Assembly (NCBI GenBank): GCA_046538485.1
Contig: JBKHIT010000021.1
Location: 1-64,000, forward strand
Direction of reading: 5' to 3'
DNA length: 64,000 nt
Origin: Candidatus Brocadiia bacterium
GTDB taxonomy: Bacteria > Planctomycetota > Brocadiia > SM23-32
Shown here: in pieces, positions 50,874-57,630 of the stretch
Layout of the letters: each line of letters begins with the position of its first letter
Numbering within the stretch: position 1 is the stretch's first letter
Position numbers and translations under genes: made by a program
Notes under the pieces: generated by a model
Database searches by the model: none
What the model was told of the DNA's origin: nothing
The model's input: the letters and a program-made list of their open reading frames with translations, nothing else

Positions 50874-52376
50874 TTACGGTTCGATTGGTTCTTCCATTTT
50901 ATGCGCAACTTCAATGGCACGGAGGAGCGCTTTAGCTTTATTGAGCGTTTCTTCGAATTCCCGTTCGGGCACGCTATCGGCGACAATTCCCCCGCCGGCC
51001 TGCACGTAAGCGTCCCGGCCCTGAAGCACAACAGTCCGGATGGTGATACAGGTATCCATATTCCCGCTGAAATCGAAATACCCGACGGCCCCGCCGTAAG
51101 GTCCTCGTTTCGTCGGCTCCAGTTCATCGATGATCTCCATAGCGCGCACTTTTGGTGCTCCGGTAAGCGTACCGGCGGGGATACATGCCATAAGAGCATC
51201 GAGCGCATCGTTATCATCGGTCAGTTCGCCGGTCACATTGGAGACGATGTGCATGACGTGCGAGTAGCGTTCGATGACCATAATTTCATCGGCACGAACG
51301 GTCCCGTACTGACAAACTCTGCCAAGATCGTTTCGGCCAAGATCAACCAGCATCACATGCTCGGCCCGTTCTTTGGGATCAGAGAGCAATTCTTCCGCGA
51401 GTTCTTGATCTTTTTCTTCGCTCTGTCCCCTGGGCCGGGTGCCCGCGATAGGACGGACCGTGGCAGTTCGGTTCTCGACGCGCACCATCACCTCGGGGGA
51501 AGAGCCCACGAGATGGAGGTCATCCATTTTGAGCAAAAACATGTAGGGGGAAGGATTGATAACGCGAAGCGCCCGGTAGATATCCAGCGGCGAAGCGGAA
51601 GTCTGCACGCCGAGTCTCTGGGAAGGGACCACCTGGAAGATATCGCCGGCGCGGATATATTCTTTGCATTTCTCCACTCCCTCCAGATAATCCTGTTTCT
51701 CGAAATTTGACTCGAATGGAATTGTGATTTCGCCCTGAGGCGTAATATCATCACTGAGGTTGCTGACCGGTGTCCGGAGACGCGAAATTAATCGGTCAAT
51801 ACGCGCACAGGCATCATGGTAGGCCGTCTCGGGCTTTTCTCCATCAGTTCGGACACTGCATACGACCTTTATGGTCTTATTGAGGTAATCAAAGATCAAT
51901 ATTTCATCAAAGAACATGTAATAGATATCGGGGATATCTCGATCGTCGGGCGGACAGTCCGGCAGTTCTTCGACGAAACGGACGACATCATAGGCCATGA
52001 ATCCCACGGCACCGCACGAGAAACGTGGCAGGCCCTCTACTGGAGCGAGTTGAAAACGGGAGAGATAATCCCGAAAGACGGGGAATGGATTATCGGTCTG
52101 GATGGTTTCGACATCGTCCCCTTCGCAGATTTCAACGGTATTGCCCTGGGCTTTAAAAAGAGCAAATGGGGAGCTTCCCAGGAAACAATATCGACCGATT
52201 TTTTCGGGACCGCTCGCACTTTCCAGCAGGAAAGCATAATCACCGTCAGCCATTTTTTGGAACGCCGAAACAGGGGTCAGAGTATCGGCCATTAATTGGC
52301 GATAAACCGGGATAACGTTCCCCTGCTGGCTCTTTTCCTTGAACTCACTCAGTCCGGGGCAATACTGTGGTTTCAT
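50874..52376 (-). CDS. trpE: Anthranilate synthase component I
   Basis: LLESA, GDIFQVVPS, NPSPYM, GSSPE, PIAGTR, EHVMLVDLGRND, GAPKVRAM, AGGGIV. Confidence 0.93.
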   Translation of the reverse strand: MKPQYCPGLSEFKEKSQQGNVIPVYRQLMADTLTPVSAFQKMADGDYAFLLESASGPEKIGRYCFLGSSPFALFKAQGNTVEICEGDDVETIQTDNPFPVFRDYLSRFQLAPVEGLPRFSCGAVGFMAYDVVRFVEELPDCPPDDRDIPDIYYMFFDEILIFDYLNKTIKVVCSVRTDGEKPETAYHDACARIDRLISRLRTPVSNLSDDITPQGEITIPFESNFEKQDYLEGVEKCKEYIRAGDIFQVVPSQRLGVQTSASPLDIYRALRVINPSPYMFLLKMDDLHLVGSSPEVMVRVENRTATVRPIAGTRPRGQSEEKDQELAEELLSDPKERAEHVMLVDLGRNDLGRVCQYGTVRADEIMVIERYSHVMHIVSNVTGELTDDNDALDALMACIPAGTLTGAPKVRAMEIIDELEPTKRGPYGGAVGYFDFSGNMDTCITIRTVVLQGRDAYVQAGGGIVADSVPEREFEETLNKAKALLRAIEVAHKMEEPIEP

Positions 52377-52513
52377 AAGCCGAACGCCTTTCCTCTTTGG
52401 GATGCCACAGTTAAAAAGAGTCAACCCTTGCACGCAACCCCTTATTGGGGCTATAACAATAGGTAGATGGAGAAAAGCAAAACATCTTTTCCGCTTTTTG
52501 CAGGAGGTTTCGG

Positions 52514-52840
52514 ATGGCAGCTTACGTTGTAGGCCTGATCACGGGCGCTATTGTCACCATTTTCCCGCTTATTTATGCAATGAGCTTCGACCATTGTCAG
52601 GCTCTGGTTGTCAGTGCCGGCAAAAGTCCCACCGCGCTCGCTCCTTCAGTCTCCCCTGGTTTGGTGACCACCATCACCATTATCGGAGCAGTCGTCTTAC
52701 TTCTGAATGCAGCCATGCTCGCCTTTACGGGACTCAGCAACCTGGGCTTTGCCAGCGGCGAAACTCAAAAACCGGAGGAGTCACCTGATGAAGAACCCGA
52801 CGAATCCGCTGAGACCGAACCTCAGGAACCATCTTTTTGA
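52514..52840 (+). CDS. Small two-TM hypothetical protein
   Basis: GGAGG SD; two hydrophobic segments and an acidic tail. Confidence 0.6.
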   Translation: MAAYVVGLITGAIVTIFPLIYAMSFDHCQALVVSAGKSPTALAPSVSPGLVTTITIIGAVVLLLNAAMLAFTGLSNLGFASGETQKPEESPDEEPDESAETEPQEPSF

Positions 52841-53142
52841 TTCATCCTGTCGGTGCGTGGTCTTTTCCTTCGCGGAAAACCTCGTCCGCAGTGAGGGCAG
52901 CGCCACTTCGGCCTTGGCCGCAGCAGAATAATTCCAAGCATTCCAGCTGCTATCGCGCCCCCCCAGGCCGTATCCAATTGGCCGGGAGGCACAATCCATA
53001 GCAGGCCGACACCAACGAGCAAAAAGGCAACACCGCCCACCCGAAGAAGCCAATCCGCCTCCTCCCTGACAAGCTCTACTTTACAGTCAGGGCATTGCGG
53101 CCATGGATCGATAGACTGATCTTCGGCCTCGGGTTCACTCAA
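52822..53142 (-). CDS. Small membrane protein with two CxxC motifs flanking two TM helices
   Basis: CPDC...TM-TM...CPHC; starts 3 nt after the leuA stop. Confidence 0.65.
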   Translation of the reverse strand: MSEPEAEDQSIDPWPQCPDCKVELVREEADWLLRVGGVAFLLVGVGLLWIVPPGQLDTAWGGAIAAGMLGIILLRPRPKWRCPHCGRGFPRRKRPRTDRMNQKDGS

Positions 53143-53145
53143 TGA

Positions 53146-54717
53146 TCACATCCCGTGGAAACTTTCTGAAATCTCATCACCGTTGCGGCGCGCTTTGGCA
53201 ATTCGATTCACAGCGGCCAGATATGCGCGTGCGCTGGCTTCCAGGATATCGGTGCTGGTAGCGCGGCCCCGCACCGTCATATCGTCCGAAATCACTTCCA
53301 GCGAGACTTCACCCATAGCATCCTTCCCGCCGCTAATCGCTCGGATGGAATAATCCGTTAGGTCACAACTAATACCAGTAATTCTATCGATGGCTTTGTA
53401 TACCGCATCAATGGGCCCATCGCCGGTGCTGGCATCGGTTTGTTTGTTCTCCTCCACTTCAAGCTGAACCGTAGCGGTTGGTATAACACTTGTGCCGCTG
53501 GATATATGGAAAGTAATAAGCTGGAAAATATCGGGGGCTTGTTCGAGTTCTTCTCTCACAAGCGCTTCAACATCGCCGTCGAATATCTTCTTTTTCTTGT
53601 CCGCAAGCGATTTGAACTCCTGGAAAACGCGTTCAAATTTTTCACCCTCGAGTTCAATACCCAGTTCTTCCAATCGTTGTCGGAACGCGTGGCGCCCGCT
53701 GTGCTTTCCGAGAACTAACCTCGTCTTCTCAACGCCAACATCCTCCGGCCGCATGATTTCGTAGGTGCTTTTCTCTTTCAGCATGCCGTCCTGGTGAATA
53801 CCGGCCTCGTGAGCAAATGCATTCTCACCCACGATAGCCTTATTCCGCTGGACCGACAACCCCGTTACATGGCTGACAAGCCGACTGGTTTTCATGATCT
53901 GTTCGGTTCGGATCCCCGTCTCCACGCCAAAAATATCCCTGCGGGTTGCAAGGGCCATCACCACCTCTTCGAGGGAACAATTCCCGGCACGTTCTCCGAT
54001 CCCATTGATCGTGCATTCAACCTGTCGGGCACCCCGGCGCACGGCTTCCAATGAATTTGAAACGCCCAGGCCGAGATCGTTATGGCAGTGCACGCTGATG
54101 ACAGCCTCCCCGATATTTGGGACTTCCTGGACGAGGTTCTCAATCGTTGCGCCGAACTGGGCGGGAATAGCGTAGCCCACAGTATCAGGGATGTTCACCG
54201 TCTTTGCGCCGGCGTCGATAACAGCTTCGACAACTTCTCGAAGAAAATCATGCTCGGTGCGGCTGGCATCTTCCGGGCTAAATTCCACATCCTCGCAGAA
54301 TTTTTTGGCCAGGCGAACGCCTTTGACCGCCAGCTTAAGAATCTCCCCTCTCGCTTTTTTGAGTTTGTGTTTCCGATGAATCTCGCTGGTCGCCAGGAAA
54401 ACGTGTATCCGCGGGTGCTTTGCCTCTTCGAGAGCCTGTGCGGCCCGATCAATGTCCTCAGAGACACAACGCGCAAGTCCGGCAATTACAGGGGTTTCCA
54501 CACTGCGGGACACTTCTTTAACGCTCTCAAAATCGCCTTCCGAAGCGATTGGAAAGCCCGCCTCTATCACATCAACCCCCAATCGCGAAAGCTGTCGTGC
54601 TACGTGGATTTTCTCTTCGATGGTCATGGAACAACCGGGCGCCTGTTCTCCGTCGCGGAGGGTGGTATCAAAAATCGTGACACGGTCGTCTGTTTCACTC
54701 TGGTTTTTTTCACTCAT
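53146..54717 (-). CDS. leuA: 2-isopropylmalate synthase
   Basis: FDTTLRDGEQAPG, HCHNDLG, GIGERAGN, HEAGIHQDG, LGKHSGR, GDGPIDA regulatory domain. Confidence 0.96.
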   Translation of the reverse strand: MSEKNQSETDDRVTIFDTTLRDGEQAPGCSMTIEEKIHVARQLSRLGVDVIEAGFPIASEGDFESVKEVSRSVETPVIAGLARCVSEDIDRAAQALEEAKHPRIHVFLATSEIHRKHKLKKARGEILKLAVKGVRLAKKFCEDVEFSPEDASRTEHDFLREVVEAVIDAGAKTVNIPDTVGYAIPAQFGATIENLVQEVPNIGEAVISVHCHNDLGLGVSNSLEAVRRGARQVECTINGIGERAGNCSLEEVVMALATRRDIFGVETGIRTEQIMKTSRLVSHVTGLSVQRNKAIVGENAFAHEAGIHQDGMLKEKSTYEIMRPEDVGVEKTRLVLGKHSGRHAFRQRLEELGIELEGEKFERVFQEFKSLADKKKKIFDGDVEALVREELEQAPDIFQLITFHISSGTSVIPTATVQLEVEENKQTDASTGDGPIDAVYKAIDRITGISCDLTDYSIRAISGGKDAMGEVSLEVISDDMTVRGRATSTDILEASARAYLAAVNRIAKARRNGDEISESFHGM

Positions 54718-54829
54718 TATTCGAATCTTTCAGATGGAGTCGCCGTTGAACAGGAGAATAATCTTCAGTATCGACCCAAATCCAGTTCGAGCGACGCAGT
54801 CCGCACGGGGCGAACTTTCGTCGCGACAT
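54710..54829 (-). CDS. 39-aa upstream ORF (MSRRKFAPCGLRRSNWIWVDTEDYSPVQRRLHLKDSNNE) overlapping the leuA start
   Basis: Strong GGGAGGAG SD; its TGA lies within leuA ATGAGTGA (8-nt overlap); leuA itself lacks an obvious SD. Confidence 0.5.
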   Translation of the reverse strand: MSRRKFAPCGLRRSNWIWVDTEDYSPVQRRLHLKDSNNE

Positions 54830-54910
54830 ACGCTCCTCCCGGTCTCATGCTATCTGATCTATGATTTTGCTCCACCATTTTCATTCTGCTTCTTGGCGTT
54901 CCAGCTCGCA

Positions 54911-54947
54911 CAAAAAATGCCCTACAGCCTTGAGAGGCCTGCAGGGC
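54911..54947 (-). terminator. Attenuator intrinsic terminator upstream of leuA
   Basis: GCCCUGCA-G-GCCU-CUCA-AGGC-UGUAGGGC followed by AUUUUUUG. Confidence 0.85.
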
Positions 54948-54977
54948 GCGATTCTCTTTCTCCGAAACAGCCAGACC

Positions 54978-55067
54978 CTACCTGCCTCGCTTTGGCCTGG
55001 ACAACCAGAGCGAAGTGAGCCACAGGTTCAAAAGCCACAAACGAGACTGGGTCTGCTCGTTCCTCAT
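54978..55067 (-). CDS. Leader peptide MRNEQTQSRLWLLNLWLTSLWLSRPKRGR (7 Leu, 3 Trp)
   Basis: Manual translation. Lies between the promoter and the terminator; its stop codon is embedded in the antiterminator strand. Confidence 0.8.
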   Translation of the reverse strand: MRNEQTQSRLWLLNLWLTSLWLSRPKRGR

Positions 55068-55076
55068 AACAACCGC

Positions 55077-55105
55077 ATTCTAAGCCAAAAAAACGTGCCC
55101 GTCAA
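55077..55105 (-). promoter_or_regulatory. Sigma70-like promoter of the leuA leader
   Basis: TTGACG-17 nt-TAGAAT; the leader ATG is 9 nt after the -10 box. Confidence 0.7.
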
Positions 55106-55171
55106 GGTCTGATTTACCGGGTACCGGGACGCTGCTGATGATTGTAATGGCATCCGGGAACCCGGGAAAAG

Positions 55172-55900
55172 CTACTCAACGGTTATAACCGTTGAAGCTG
55201 CCCGCTGATAGTCGACAAAACTGATATCGGCGTGTGAGCGGTAACGCCACAGCCAGCCCCGGTCCCATCGTCCGTTTCCATTTAGATCCCGGAATGCTTC
55301 CCCCGGGACGGGGTTGCGGCCGTCCGGGAGGCCGTCGCCGTTCCGATCCCCCCCCGGCAAAACGGGTTCGGGATCGACGAGAAACTTTTTGCTTCCTCCC
55401 GTGCGATCCGATAGATAGCCGTAATATTTCAGCATGAGAGCGCCGCTGTCGACGGGAAGCTTTTGGGTTTCGATCCGGCCAACGTCACCGGGAATATATT
55501 TCACGAACGGCAGAAGGGCGTAGAGGATAAGCACAAAACCGCTGACAACGAGACCGTTGAATACCCCTAAAATTCCTCCTGCCACGGGATCCACTATACG
55601 ATAGGAAGGGAGATCCGGCGATGTAAGCTTTCGTCTGAGTGTTCCTGCCACTCCGACGGTCACGCCGAAAACAGTGGCAAAAACGATCATCCTCATATAA
55701 AGCGGTCCGGGATGGAGTTTGAAACGCGTGATGAGCCCGGTCATAAGACATGTCAATGGATCACACAGGGAAAGAGCCAGCACGAAACCCAGCAAATTGC
55801 GCATCAGCGCATAGACGGAGTCAAAGAACCCTGACGAAATTCCCCCGTAGATCATAATGCCAAAGATAACGAGAAGAAGAAGAATGGCGACGACCTGCAT
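55172..55900 (-). CDS. CvpA family membrane protein
   Basis: Multi-TM; D...GGILGVFNG motif; C-terminal DRNGDG / DLNGNG Ca-loop-like motifs. Confidence 0.75.
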   Translation of the reverse strand: MQVVAILLLLVIFGIMIYGGISSGFFDSVYALMRNLLGFVLALSLCDPLTCLMTGLITRFKLHPGPLYMRMIVFATVFGVTVGVAGTLRRKLTSPDLPSYRIVDPVAGGILGVFNGLVVSGFVLILYALLPFVKYIPGDVGRIETQKLPVDSGALMLKYYGYLSDRTGGSKKFLVDPEPVLPGGDRNGDGLPDGRNPVPGEAFRDLNGNGRWDRGWLWRYRSHADISFVDYQRAASTVITVE

Positions 55901-55917
55901 TTCGGCCCTCCACGGTT

Positions 55918-57630
55918 TTATTTTTTCAATATTCGGCGTATTTCTTTCAGCGTAGTTACCCCTTCCTGCACTTTCAGAAGGGCATCCTGATAAAGTGTTC
56001 TGAGTGCGTCACTGCCGGCTGCTTTTTTTACCGCATCGGCTGAGACGCCTGTTTGTTGCATCACCTGGTGGACTCTGTCATTGAGTATCAGCATCTCGAA
56101 AACACCTGTTTGCCCTTTAAACCCGGTATTCAAACACGCTTCGCAACCGACGGCCCGGAACCATTCGCCGGCATTTTCGGGATCAATATTGAGCTTTTCA
56201 AGCAATTTCGGATTCGGTGCCACCGGTTCCTTACAATCGTCGCAAAGCGTCCGCACGAGACGTTGCGAGACAACACAACTGAGTGTTTTTGCAGCCACGC
56301 CACCGTCCAAACCCTTCACCAGCTGAACGGTAGCTTCCGGAGCCCCGCCCGCCTGGATAGTCCCGATAAAACGCCCCGTGTCGGTCGGGAAATTCAGCAT
56401 CTCCACGACGGCTTTTGTATTGACGATTTCATCCACTGCCAGCACATCCGGTTCCTGCCGCAGAACAGGGGCCAGCGTATTATTCACTTTCTCCGGCGAT
56501 TTCAGGTCGACCTGATGCCTTTGTATTTGGCCCAGTTCATGTTCGAGACGGGACTCAAACGTGTGGACGTCGGTTGTGAAAATGTCGATTTCATTCAGCG
56601 TGGCATGAAACGTTGTCGTTTTGCCTGATCGGGACGGCCCGCTGAACAAAATGCTTCGTCCGGATGTAGCCACCAGCTTTTTTATACGCTGGATCATAGC
56701 TTTGTGCATGCCGAGCGCCTCAAGGCCACCACGATACAGATCTTCCGTCCAATCTGGCATATTGAACACGACGGCGGCTCCGTGCTGCGCTTTGCGTCCT
56801 CTTACCTGTATTGACACGCTTTCACCTCCCTGGATATTGGCTTTAAGTTCCGCGCGGGCTTTCCCTTTTCGCCCGAGCCCCAGGAATTGAGCCACACATG
56901 CCACCACAAGTTTCCCGTAATCCAGATCAAGAGAATCGAATTTCTGCATTACGCCATATAGCCTGAACAGAACCGCGAATTCTTCCTCACCGGGTTCCAA
57001 TCGCATCGCCTCGGCATCAGCCTCACATGCCTCTCCGATTAGATTTTCCAGTGTGTCGGCCGCATCAGCAAAACGTTCTTTTTCAGCGACCCAATCGGAC
57101 AGCTCGCGGCCCGAAGAATCTTCCAGGGAGACCCGAGGGCTCACGCGTGCGGTCGCCGTTCCCCCTGCAGGTCCTTTGACTGAACTCTCGGGCGCACAGA
57201 GCCATTCCGGACCGATACGGAACTGTTCGGGCACTACGGCATTTCGAAGCCAGAGATAATATACAAAAACGCCGCCTACGCCGAGCACGAGTACCAGAAA
57301 GCAAATCGGGTGAAGTAAAAATGTCAGCATGACTCCGAAAAGCCCTGTGCCGACAAAAATTGTACACCATTTTCGGAAACCCATTCCGACGCCCAGAGCA
57401 TCGTCTGCCGCCCAGGCAGAGAGCAACAACCAGCCAAATATGGACGGAGGAATAAGAATTAACCAGAGCGGATGAATATAGAACCCCCCCTGCATTTCAA
57501 GCACCGCTGAAACGTCCCCTCCCAACTCCCCAGCGTAAACGAGCGTGACAAGGCAGAAGAAAACCAAGCCAAAAACAGCGGGTCTAAAAATTTGACCCAG
57601 TTCTTGCTGCCGGTACTGATCTCCGTTCAC
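55918..57630 (-). CDS. GspE/PilB-like secretion ATPase with N-terminal TM helices and degenerate motifs
   Basis: GPSRSGKTTT, LRQEPD, SQRLVRTLC..C, GC..C..TGFKG, E..R; hydrophobic N-terminus. Confidence 0.85.
   Translation of the reverse strand: MNGDQYRQQELGQIFRPAVFGLVFFCLVTLVYAGELGGDVSAVLEMQGGFYIHPLWLILIPPSIFGWLLLSAWAADDALGVGMGFRKWCTIFVGTGLFGVMLTFLLHPICFLVLVLGVGGVFVYYLWLRNAVVPEQFRIGPEWLCAPESSVKGPAGGTATARVSPRVSLEDSSGRELSDWVAEKERFADAADTLENLIGEACEADAEAMRLEPGEEEFAVLFRLYGVMQKFDSLDLDYGKLVVACVAQFLGLGRKGKARAELKANIQGGESVSIQVRGRKAQHGAAVVFNMPDWTEDLYRGGLEALGMHKAMIQRIKKLVATSGRSILFSGPSRSGKTTTFHATLNEIDIFTTDVHTFESRLEHELGQIQRHQVDLKSPEKVNNTLAPVLRQEPDVLAVDEIVNTKAVVEMLNFPTDTGRFIGTIQAGGAPEATVQLVKGLDGGVAAKTLSCVVSQRLVRTLCDDCKEPVAPNPKLLEKLNIDPENAGEWFRAVGCEACLNTGFKGQTGVFEMLILNDRVHQVMQQTGVSADAVKKAAGSDALRTLYQDALLKVQEGVTTLKEIRRILKK

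Follow-up and report, generated by a model that had tools for sequence, protein, structure and literature searches.

The DNA stretch studied here (hereafter the window) comprises 64,000 nucleotides of a Candidatus Brocadiia bacterium (assembly GCA_046538485.1, contig JBKHIT010000021.1, positions 1 to 64,000) and carries on its minus strand leuA (53146..54717), coding for 2-isopropylmalate synthase (NF002086, 804 bits; TIGR00973, 752 bits), and downstream of it trpE (50874..52376, or to 52433), coding for anthranilate synthase component I (TIGR00564, 589 bits). Between both genes, on the plus strand, there is a small membrane-protein gene (52514..52840). The subject of this work is the short leader region upstream of leuA, which shows the organization of a transcription attenuator. 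An earlier interpretation based on this DNA alone (the sequence-only reading) had proposed that its leader peptide interleaves leucine and tryptophan codons and may integrate the availability of both amino acids. All coordinates given below for the leader, leuA and trpE are window positions on the minus strand.

The leader begins with a sigma-70-type promoter sequence consisting of the −35 hexamer TTGACG (55100..55105) and the −10 hexamer TAGAAT (55077..55082), separated by a 17-nt spacer and scoring 10/12. An ATG (55067–55065) is found 9 nt past the −10 box, so the mRNA would be leaderless or nearly so, and no Shine–Dalgarno sequence is present before it. The open reading frame (ORF) starting there (54978..55067; 29 codons plus the stop TAG at 54980–54978) codes for the peptide MRNEQTQSRLWLLNLWLTSLWLSRPKRGR and contains seven leucine and three tryptophan codons, the latter at positions −16, −11, and −6 counted from the UGA stop of related leaders. 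In the window that UGA reads CGA, a change also found in one relative (G012), and the ORF is consequently three codons longer, up to an in-frame UAG that the relatives have as well. The stop codon is spanned by the 5′ strand of a putative antiterminator, AGGCAGGUAGGGU (54975..54987), which is complementary to GCCCUGCAGGCCU (54947–54935) through 7+4 pairs around a 2×2 internal loop. The 5′ arm of a 29-nt terminator hairpin (54919..54947; 5′ arm 54936–54947, loop 54930–54935, 3′ arm 54919–54929) is common to terminator and antiterminator. The hairpin is followed, after one A, by a U6 tract (54912..54917), and leuA starts 195 nt past this tract. All the parts listed by the sequence-only reading, namely the promoter, the near-leaderless 29-codon ORF, the antiterminator strand across its stop, and the terminator with U6, were present in the sequence.

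General-purpose searches did not single out this region. A cmscan of positions 54000–56000 against Rfam at E ≤ 10 gave four matches, none of them to a leader, T-box or riboswitch and none near its gathering score, and a simple terminator scan of the window region missed the attenuator hairpin. The promoter match alone was not significant, since 8 kb contained 9 promoter-like sites where 5.0 ± 2.0 were expected. The minimum free energy (MFE) of the full leader was −67.9 kcal/mol, with a z-score of only −2.18, and 7 of 200 shuffled sequences folded as well. Such values would also fit a non-regulatory explanation, in which a chance small ORF happens to lie beside the ordinary terminator of the upstream gene (55172–55900) and an ordinary leuA promoter region. 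The arrangement of the signals argues against it: the leader promoter is located downstream of the end of the upstream gene, and the terminator lies in turn downstream of that promoter. Moreover, this upstream neighbor was found in only one of the relatives' loci, and more than 20 genomes share the complete arrangement, with covariation, while 101 sister-family genomes lack it, as described below. We therefore consider a chance origin very improbable.

LeuA relatives were obtained from 36 of 41 related genomes; LeuA matches from a search of other genome contigs were distant (52–64% identity) and came mostly from metagenome-assembled genomes (MAGs) of Planctomycetota, Omnitrophota, and Nitrospirota. 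The same kind of small ORF was found upstream of leuA in relatives from the uncultured family of the window's organism, with homologous leader ORFs in 22 further genomes. Best promoter scores were 10–12/12 in 15/15 loci, the −35 hexamer being TTGACA or TTGACG in the relatives examined, and the −10 box, mostly TATAAT, lies about 9 nt before an ATG that likewise has no Shine–Dalgarno sequence. Leaders of the family are 23–29 codons long, most often 26, and their second half reads roughly SLALRWLALPWLWPG. The UGA stop of the relatives runs straight into GAGGC-GG-GUAGGGU, and the family terminator corresponds to GCCCUGCAGCC...GGCUGCGGGGC followed by a U-run, the T-run being present in all aligned relatives. 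Thirteen family leader sequences served to build a covariance model (R1). At E ≤ 0.01, R1 found matches in 29/31 family genomes; at E ≤ 1e-5, it matched 26/30 family genomes and 0/101 genomes representing ten further families of its class. Ten leuA-type matches were outside the 13-sequence seed, and in the loci examined the best-scoring ones sit just upstream of leuA. A scan of metagenomes with an 18-nt motif retrieved 80 loci, three of which were true R1 matches; one of these was new, and the other two appear to be the already known contigs of G044 and G046 (equal scores, and in one case identical coordinates). The case for more than chance rests on this recurrence upstream of leuA across the family, and its weight is lessened by the fact that the family genomes are kin, so that the counts overstate independence.

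Two family members showed deviating leader regions. In G020 (contig C4) the leuA-type leader is located about 1.87 kb upstream of leuA, compared with the usual distance of about 0.2 kb, and another gene has apparently been inserted between attenuator and leuA; in G001, a congener of G020, the spacing is the usual one. In G023, whose genome is 72% complete, the leader region gave a weak R1 match (27.3 bits), and an in-frame TGA precedes the Leu/Trp stretch expected there; either the attenuator is decaying or the sequence is misassembled.

Conservation of the RNA helices was determined in an alignment of 22 sequences (A4), which excludes the strongly diverged leader of G005. The terminator helix was paired in 95.0% of cells, with 3 of its 11 pairs changing on both sides, and the antiterminator in 87.1% of cells compared with 37–51% in slid controls, also with three pairs changing on both sides. 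An inner hairpin, formed from the Pro-Trp and Pro-Gly codons, was paired in 91.6% of cells, and the pairing of a 5′ segment of the ORF with GGUCUGC past the stop in 68.8%. Covariation of the stems, proposed as a check by the sequence-only reading, was thus found in both mutually exclusive helices, and the support for them is conservation more than covariation, most helix columns being highly conserved. The leader stop codon lies inside (window) or directly at (relatives) the 5′ strand of the antiterminator. Together with the conserved leaderless ORF and the conserved terminator and antiterminator, this position backs the classical ribosome-stalling geometry claimed for the leader.

According to the mechanism we propose, the transcript would begin only a few nucleotides ahead of the ATG, and its 29 leader codons would be translated by a ribosome following the advancing RNA polymerase. 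When charged tRNAs are abundant, this ribosome would reach the stop codon inside the 5′ strand of the antiterminator and cover this strand; the terminator hairpin with its U6 tract would then form, and transcription would end at about position 54912. A ribosome stalled at the upstream leucine codons would instead leave the strand free to pair with the 5′ arm of the terminator, and polymerase would read into leuA. We infer this stalling response from the anatomy and from folding predictions. The terminator hairpin was a feature of the MFE structure of the full leader, and when the complete leader was folded at equilibrium with the ribosome masked, the terminator was obtained in every case (P(T) ~1). 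Since equilibrium folding cannot show a kinetically controlled switch, truncated transcripts were folded in its place, using a crude model in which the 3′ arm of the terminator was removed and the ribosome footprint masked. Under these conditions the antiterminator was predicted, positions 54987–54975 of the window pairing with 54947–54935. With the ribosome at the stop codon, the predicted antiterminator probability was 0.0 in 20/22 leaders and 0.1 and 0.3 in the others; ribosomes placed within about the first 15 codons gave a high value in most leaders. In the window, it reached 0.7–1.0 for stalls at all ten leucine and tryptophan codons. Without a ribosome, the probability was ≤ 0.33 in 15/22 leaders. 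The remaining seven, the window included (0.69), gave values of ≥ 0.6, which speaks against the proposed mechanism, and for G006 the model gave no antiterminator at all.

Leucine codons are a constant feature of these leaders. The 23 leuA-type leaders contain 3–7 of them each, the window having seven, and leucine identity is kept through synonymous change. Within the half of the ORF that is conserved, conservation values of 0.82–1.00 were obtained for the first two codon positions and of 0.32–0.68 for third positions of leucine and alanine codons; the leucine codon at −10 has C in 22/22 and U in 21/22 leaders, and any base at its third position. In addition, CUA accounted for 37/109 leader leucine codons (34%) as opposed to 1.2% of the 1126 leucine codons in leuA and trpE, counting the leaders of 22 relatives (the doubtful G005 alignment included and the window excluded) and the gene codons from 17 of these loci. 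The leader of the window itself uses UUG (three), CUC (two), CUU (one), and CUG (one), and these codons are not rare in its genome. In Escherichia coli, the leader leuL also has leucine codons biased to the rare CUA, alternative hairpins, and an intrinsic terminator before leuA. The elements described here are alike in having a short ORF with leucine codons, the CUA bias (in the relatives), antiterminator and terminator hairpins, and the intrinsic terminator before leuA. They differ from it in several aspects: the mRNA is leaderless and without Shine–Dalgarno sequence, the leucine codons are interleaved with tryptophan codons instead of forming a run, the stop codon is inside the antiterminator strand, leuA stands alone with trpE nearby rather than in a leuABCD arrangement, and there is no Rfam match. 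From these sequence comparisons, it is as good as certain that the element is a leucine-responsive leader-peptide attenuator of leuA.

The same pattern of conservation bears on a further explanation, namely that the hydrophobic peptide itself would be functional, either as a membrane peptide acting in trans or through nascent-chain arrest near a P-W-x-W-P-G-stop end, codon supply not being the signal. The pattern L-A-L-x-W-L-A-L-P-W-x-x-P-G is kept with synonymous third-position change, indicating selection at the codon or amino-acid level, and Pro-Gly-x-stop is the end of the ORF in the relatives; in TnaC, SecM, and similar arrest peptides, stalling depends on tryptophan and proline close to the site of arrest. 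Nevertheless, selection on codon identity also explains this periodicity, and the enrichment of the rare CUA points to tRNA supply rather than to peptide chemistry. Furthermore, the peptide of the window lacks the P-W-x-W-P-G end, and in the paralogous copies described below the residues match the downstream gene (Val with ilvB, Trp with trpS, and Phe-Tyr-Trp with DAHP synthase). We consider a functional peptide product improbable.

R1 also matched second sites in many family genomes, whose downstream genes were named by NCBIfam. Eight genomes contain Val-rich leaders before the gene for the acetolactate synthase large subunit (ilvB; TIGR00118, 828 bits), in which the stop codon precedes the inner hairpin. 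A single A/G change could turn such a short ilvB-type leader into a long one reading through this hairpin. Four genomes contain a copy before the tryptophan-tRNA ligase gene (trpS; TIGR00233, 302–317 bits; NF009207, 489 bits in G009), with 3–4 tryptophan codons in three of them and one in the other, and 1–2 leucine codons. The copy of G009 (contig C5, 218–1419), with four tryptophan codons (including a tandem WW) and one leucine codon, precedes a trpS of a second type (NF009207), and this trpS occupies the usual place of leuA, upstream of the small opposite-strand gene and trpE. Weak R1 matches were found in several family genomes before DAHP synthase genes (NF006421, 466 bits), the leaders having runs of Phe, Tyr, and Trp. 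Two further R1 matches, in G004 (contig C2, 111932–112079; 54.5 bits) and G019 (contig C359, 6990–7116; 40.1 bits), lack a recognizable controlled gene or convincing leader peptide. The window's own genome has the DAHP synthase version, located outside the window (contig C3, about 74000–74300, minus strand): a promoter and a leader of about 41 codons precede the gene, and this leader, with the core FAFWYFYF and a clean GC hairpin plus U-run behind it, looks like an attenuator responding to aromatic amino acids. In the same genome, neither a Val leader before ilvB nor a Trp leader before trpS was found, nor any Trp-rich leader within 1.5 kb before trpB; trpD starts about 60 nt past the preceding gene.

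Comparable sets of leaders have been described in Actinobacteria. In Corynebacterium glutamicum, leader peptides precede ilvB, leuA, trpE, and aroF, with Val codons, LLLL, WWW, and F-Y-F, respectively (PMC4046766, PMC3890552), and the ilvB leader is reported to be translated without a ribosome-binding site (reference 42 of PMC4046766). The likeness extends to the targets (acetolactate synthase, isopropylmalate synthase, a tryptophan-pathway gene, and DAHP synthase) and to codons that match the products. The family analyzed here belongs to another lineage, and all its copies share one scaffold found by a single covariance model; moreover, its leuA copy mixes leucine and tryptophan codons, and tryptophan control is placed before trpS and not before a trp operon. 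In Streptomyces, classical attenuators have been predicted before trpS and leuS (PMC1262725), and a leader-peptide attenuator before the gene for tryptophanyl-tRNA synthetase is also what four family genomes have. Streptomyces belongs to another phylum, and that paper reports no relationship to a leuA attenuator, whereas the trpS and leuA leaders are clear paralogues here.

The role of the tryptophan codons was then evaluated. Tryptophan represents 1.65% of the codons in the window's genome, and of the 23 leuA-type leaders ten have three tryptophan codons, 11 have two, G008 has one, and G016 has none. UGG is kept at −11 in 18/22 and at −6 in 20/22 aligned leaders, with a third UGG at −4 in 12/22; extra tryptophan codons of single lineages are the one at −16, new in the window, and two at other places in the diverged G005. 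The conservation of these codons, on which the sequence-only reading had made the dual control depend, thus held for the most part (at least two in 21/23 leaders), the exceptions being G008 and G016, the latter of which lost both. C or G replaces the U of UGG −6 in the ilvB-type copies, in which this stretch is untranslated, and G016 and G012 have CGG there; since these bases are tolerated at −6, the scaffold does not require the tryptophan codons. The U of UGG −11 is in no helix tested. The tryptophan codons of the trpS leaders are at −12/−11, −8, and −6, which means that −11 and −6 would serve tryptophan sensing in other copies of the scaffold. We take the tryptophan codons as a selected second input: predicted stalls there leave the antiterminator free, and their positions overlap in part with those of the trpS attenuators. 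The leader would then act as a Leu-OR-Trp gate, in which the tryptophan input would pay off through trpE, located downstream of leuA throughout the family. A leaderless, ribosome-mediated leuA attenuator under such dual control has, in our judgment, about an even chance of being correct.

Several observations weigh against a selected tryptophan input. UGG −6 forms the 5′ arm of the inner hairpin, which is conserved, and the folding predictions place the GG of UGG −11 in base pairs. In the alignment, UGG −11 falls precisely on the UAG stop of the ilvB-type copies, and it may be a historical relic of an old stop-to-sense change. G016 has swapped both tryptophan codons for GGG and CGG (Gly and Arg), with attenuator and synteny retained and without any other visible change than a gain of leucine codons, its congener G041 still having two tryptophan codons. 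In several relatives, moreover, stalls at the later tryptophan codons gave a low predicted antiterminator probability. These observations would be explained if the element were a plain leucine attenuator serving leuA only, with the tryptophan codons as baggage, kept because their G residues pair in conserved helices and because of the common ancestry of this leader with the trpS-type and ilvB-type copies, trpE transcribed from its own promoter, and any response to tryptophan incidental. Less easily accommodated by this explanation is that the U of UGG −6 is kept in 20/22 leaders as a weaker U-G or U-A pair although C or G is tolerated, and that the U of UGG −11 is kept in 18/22 although unpaired in the tested helices. 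New tryptophan codons have also arisen elsewhere in separate lineages, and two remain in G005, whose leader is the most diverged (28.9 bits) and whose trpE starts 7 nt past leuA. We assign to a plain leucine attenuator an appreciable chance, though one that falls short of even. Whatever the reason for their conservation, any slow codon ahead of the antiterminator strand should relieve termination, and, on this model of the switch, the leader very probably reacts to a shortage of charged tryptophan tRNA as well.

The second line of evidence concerns the linkage of leuA and trpE. The sequence-only reading had placed trpE about 0.8 kb past leuA on the same strand. The gap is indeed 0.77 kb, and trpE follows leuA on the same strand in 20/20 assessable leader-bearing genomes (four more end their contigs too early to assess), as well as in the metagenome contig with the new R1 match; this linkage speaks against a plain leucine attenuator. 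In G005 only 7 nt, and in G004 about 81–114 nt, separate the leuA stop from trpE, and both genes likely form an operon in these two genomes, judging from their spacing. In G008 (contig C14), leuA and trpE are separated by a co-oriented trpS-like stretch; it seems frameshifted near its start and may be a pseudogene or an assembly error. A first scan for terminators missed 6/18 positive controls, and was replaced by one that recovered the attenuator terminator in 17/17 controls. With the latter, no sense-strand terminator was found between leuA and trpE in 11/18 loci, and the other seven contained just long irregular hairpins with poor tails. Likewise, no conserved sigma-70-type promoter was found before trpE, the best candidates scoring 6–8/12 at varying positions compared with 10–12/12 for the leader promoter. 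A noncontiguous leuA–trpE operon is indirectly hinted at by the gene order and by the fact that neither a clear terminator nor a conserved promoter of trpE was found. Should leuA and trpE be co-transcribed across an opposite-strand gene, their layout, interrupted by an antisense gene, would resemble that of the noncontiguous operons of Staphylococcus aureus (PMC11034616, PMC7154746). Seven sequencing runs were listed for positions 52300–55120, all of them of DNA, and the habitats that contain this DNA are microbial mats or salt lakes.

Such an opposite-strand gene was missed by the sequence-only reading. It codes in 108 codons for a two-helix membrane protein for which no Pfam family passes the cut-off, has an AGGAGG ribosome-binding site, and is preceded by its own promoter sequence, TTGCAC-18-TATAAC (52428..52457, plus strand). 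A TTGCAN-18-TAGAAT-like promoter is conserved in the relatives, in the intergenic region between this gene and trpE. The sequence-only reading was thus supported in part. Its attenuator geometry is borne out by the comparisons, and synteny and most tryptophan codons are kept; the proposal that one leader may serve two pathways is less secure, a gene with its own promoter on the opposite strand lying between leuA and trpE. This gene and its pairing with trpE count against read-through to trpE, and in favor of a plain leucine attenuator. The gene, of about 100 codons in relatives, is found between leuA and trpE in the window and in 16/20 genomes (tblastn, 33–55% identity); in G020 it was missed by tblastn, but an ORF of that kind is visible in the spacer. 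Its pairing with trpE is retained in genus g8 (examined in G007 and G045), where leuA is located elsewhere and has no leader, and in G009, where trpS replaces leuA. Since the pair persists without an adjacent leuA, trpE has its own promoter at least there. In addition, a leuA–trpE read-through transcript would include an untranslated antisense stretch of 430–860 nt, exposed to termination by Rho and to polymerase collisions, and in the window it must cross 0.77 kb antisense to the small gene.

Two other features of the window flank these genes. A 106-codon ORF with two CxxC pairs (52822–53142, minus strand) starts 4 nt past the leuA stop; its zinc-ribbon matches were weak and below cut-off, its coding status is doubtful, and no counterpart was found in the relatives' loci. 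The gene upstream of the leader (55172–55900, minus strand) codes for a protein with a Colicin V production (CvpA) domain (PF02674, 51 bits), and a terminator-like hairpin (55196–55175) spans its 3′ end.

Multivalent attenuators are known from E. coli, where those of thr (Thr and Ile) and ilvGMEDA (Ile, Leu, and Val) combine amino acids of linked pathways. The leader analyzed here is like them in that a single leader carries codons for several amino acids, a shortage of any of which would relieve termination, and differs in that leucine and tryptophan share no pathway, so that the rationale would be the gene order leuA–trpE. In a literature search that left most subscription journals outside its scope, we found no description of a mixed Leu and Trp leader, of a leuA–trpE attenuator, or of one recognizable scaffold common to all attenuator copies of this kind. 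To our knowledge, nearly all worked examples of leader-peptide attenuation come from Proteobacteria and Actinobacteria, and each senses a single pathway network. Beyond dual control of leuA, a wider model can be formulated: a modular cassette with a single leaderless RNA scaffold would have been duplicated ahead of ilvB, leuA, trpS, and DAHP synthase genes and re-programmed by codon swaps in the leader peptide, its leuA copy being a Leu-OR-Trp gate that drives a noncontiguous operon, leuA-[antisense gene]-trpE, with read-through silencing the antisense gene. We regard this model, taken as a whole, as rather unlikely.

The recurrence of one RNA scaffold with codons for at least four amino-acid classes offers a natural series on which to learn which codon positions the switch reads, and R1 allows such leaders to be annotated in MAGs, where Rfam finds nothing. 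Besides this re-use of a scaffold, a second novelty of the family is a leuA leader that retains tryptophan codons beside a conserved leuA–trpE order. If these codons are not functional, the case would be a useful caution that structure or history can account for conserved "regulatory" codons. If they are functional, gene order and not metabolism would set the logic of the attenuator, a compact two-input RNA gate; and, should the wider model be true, read-through of this gate would turn on the initial enzymes of two pathways with no metabolic relation while shutting off the antisense gene.

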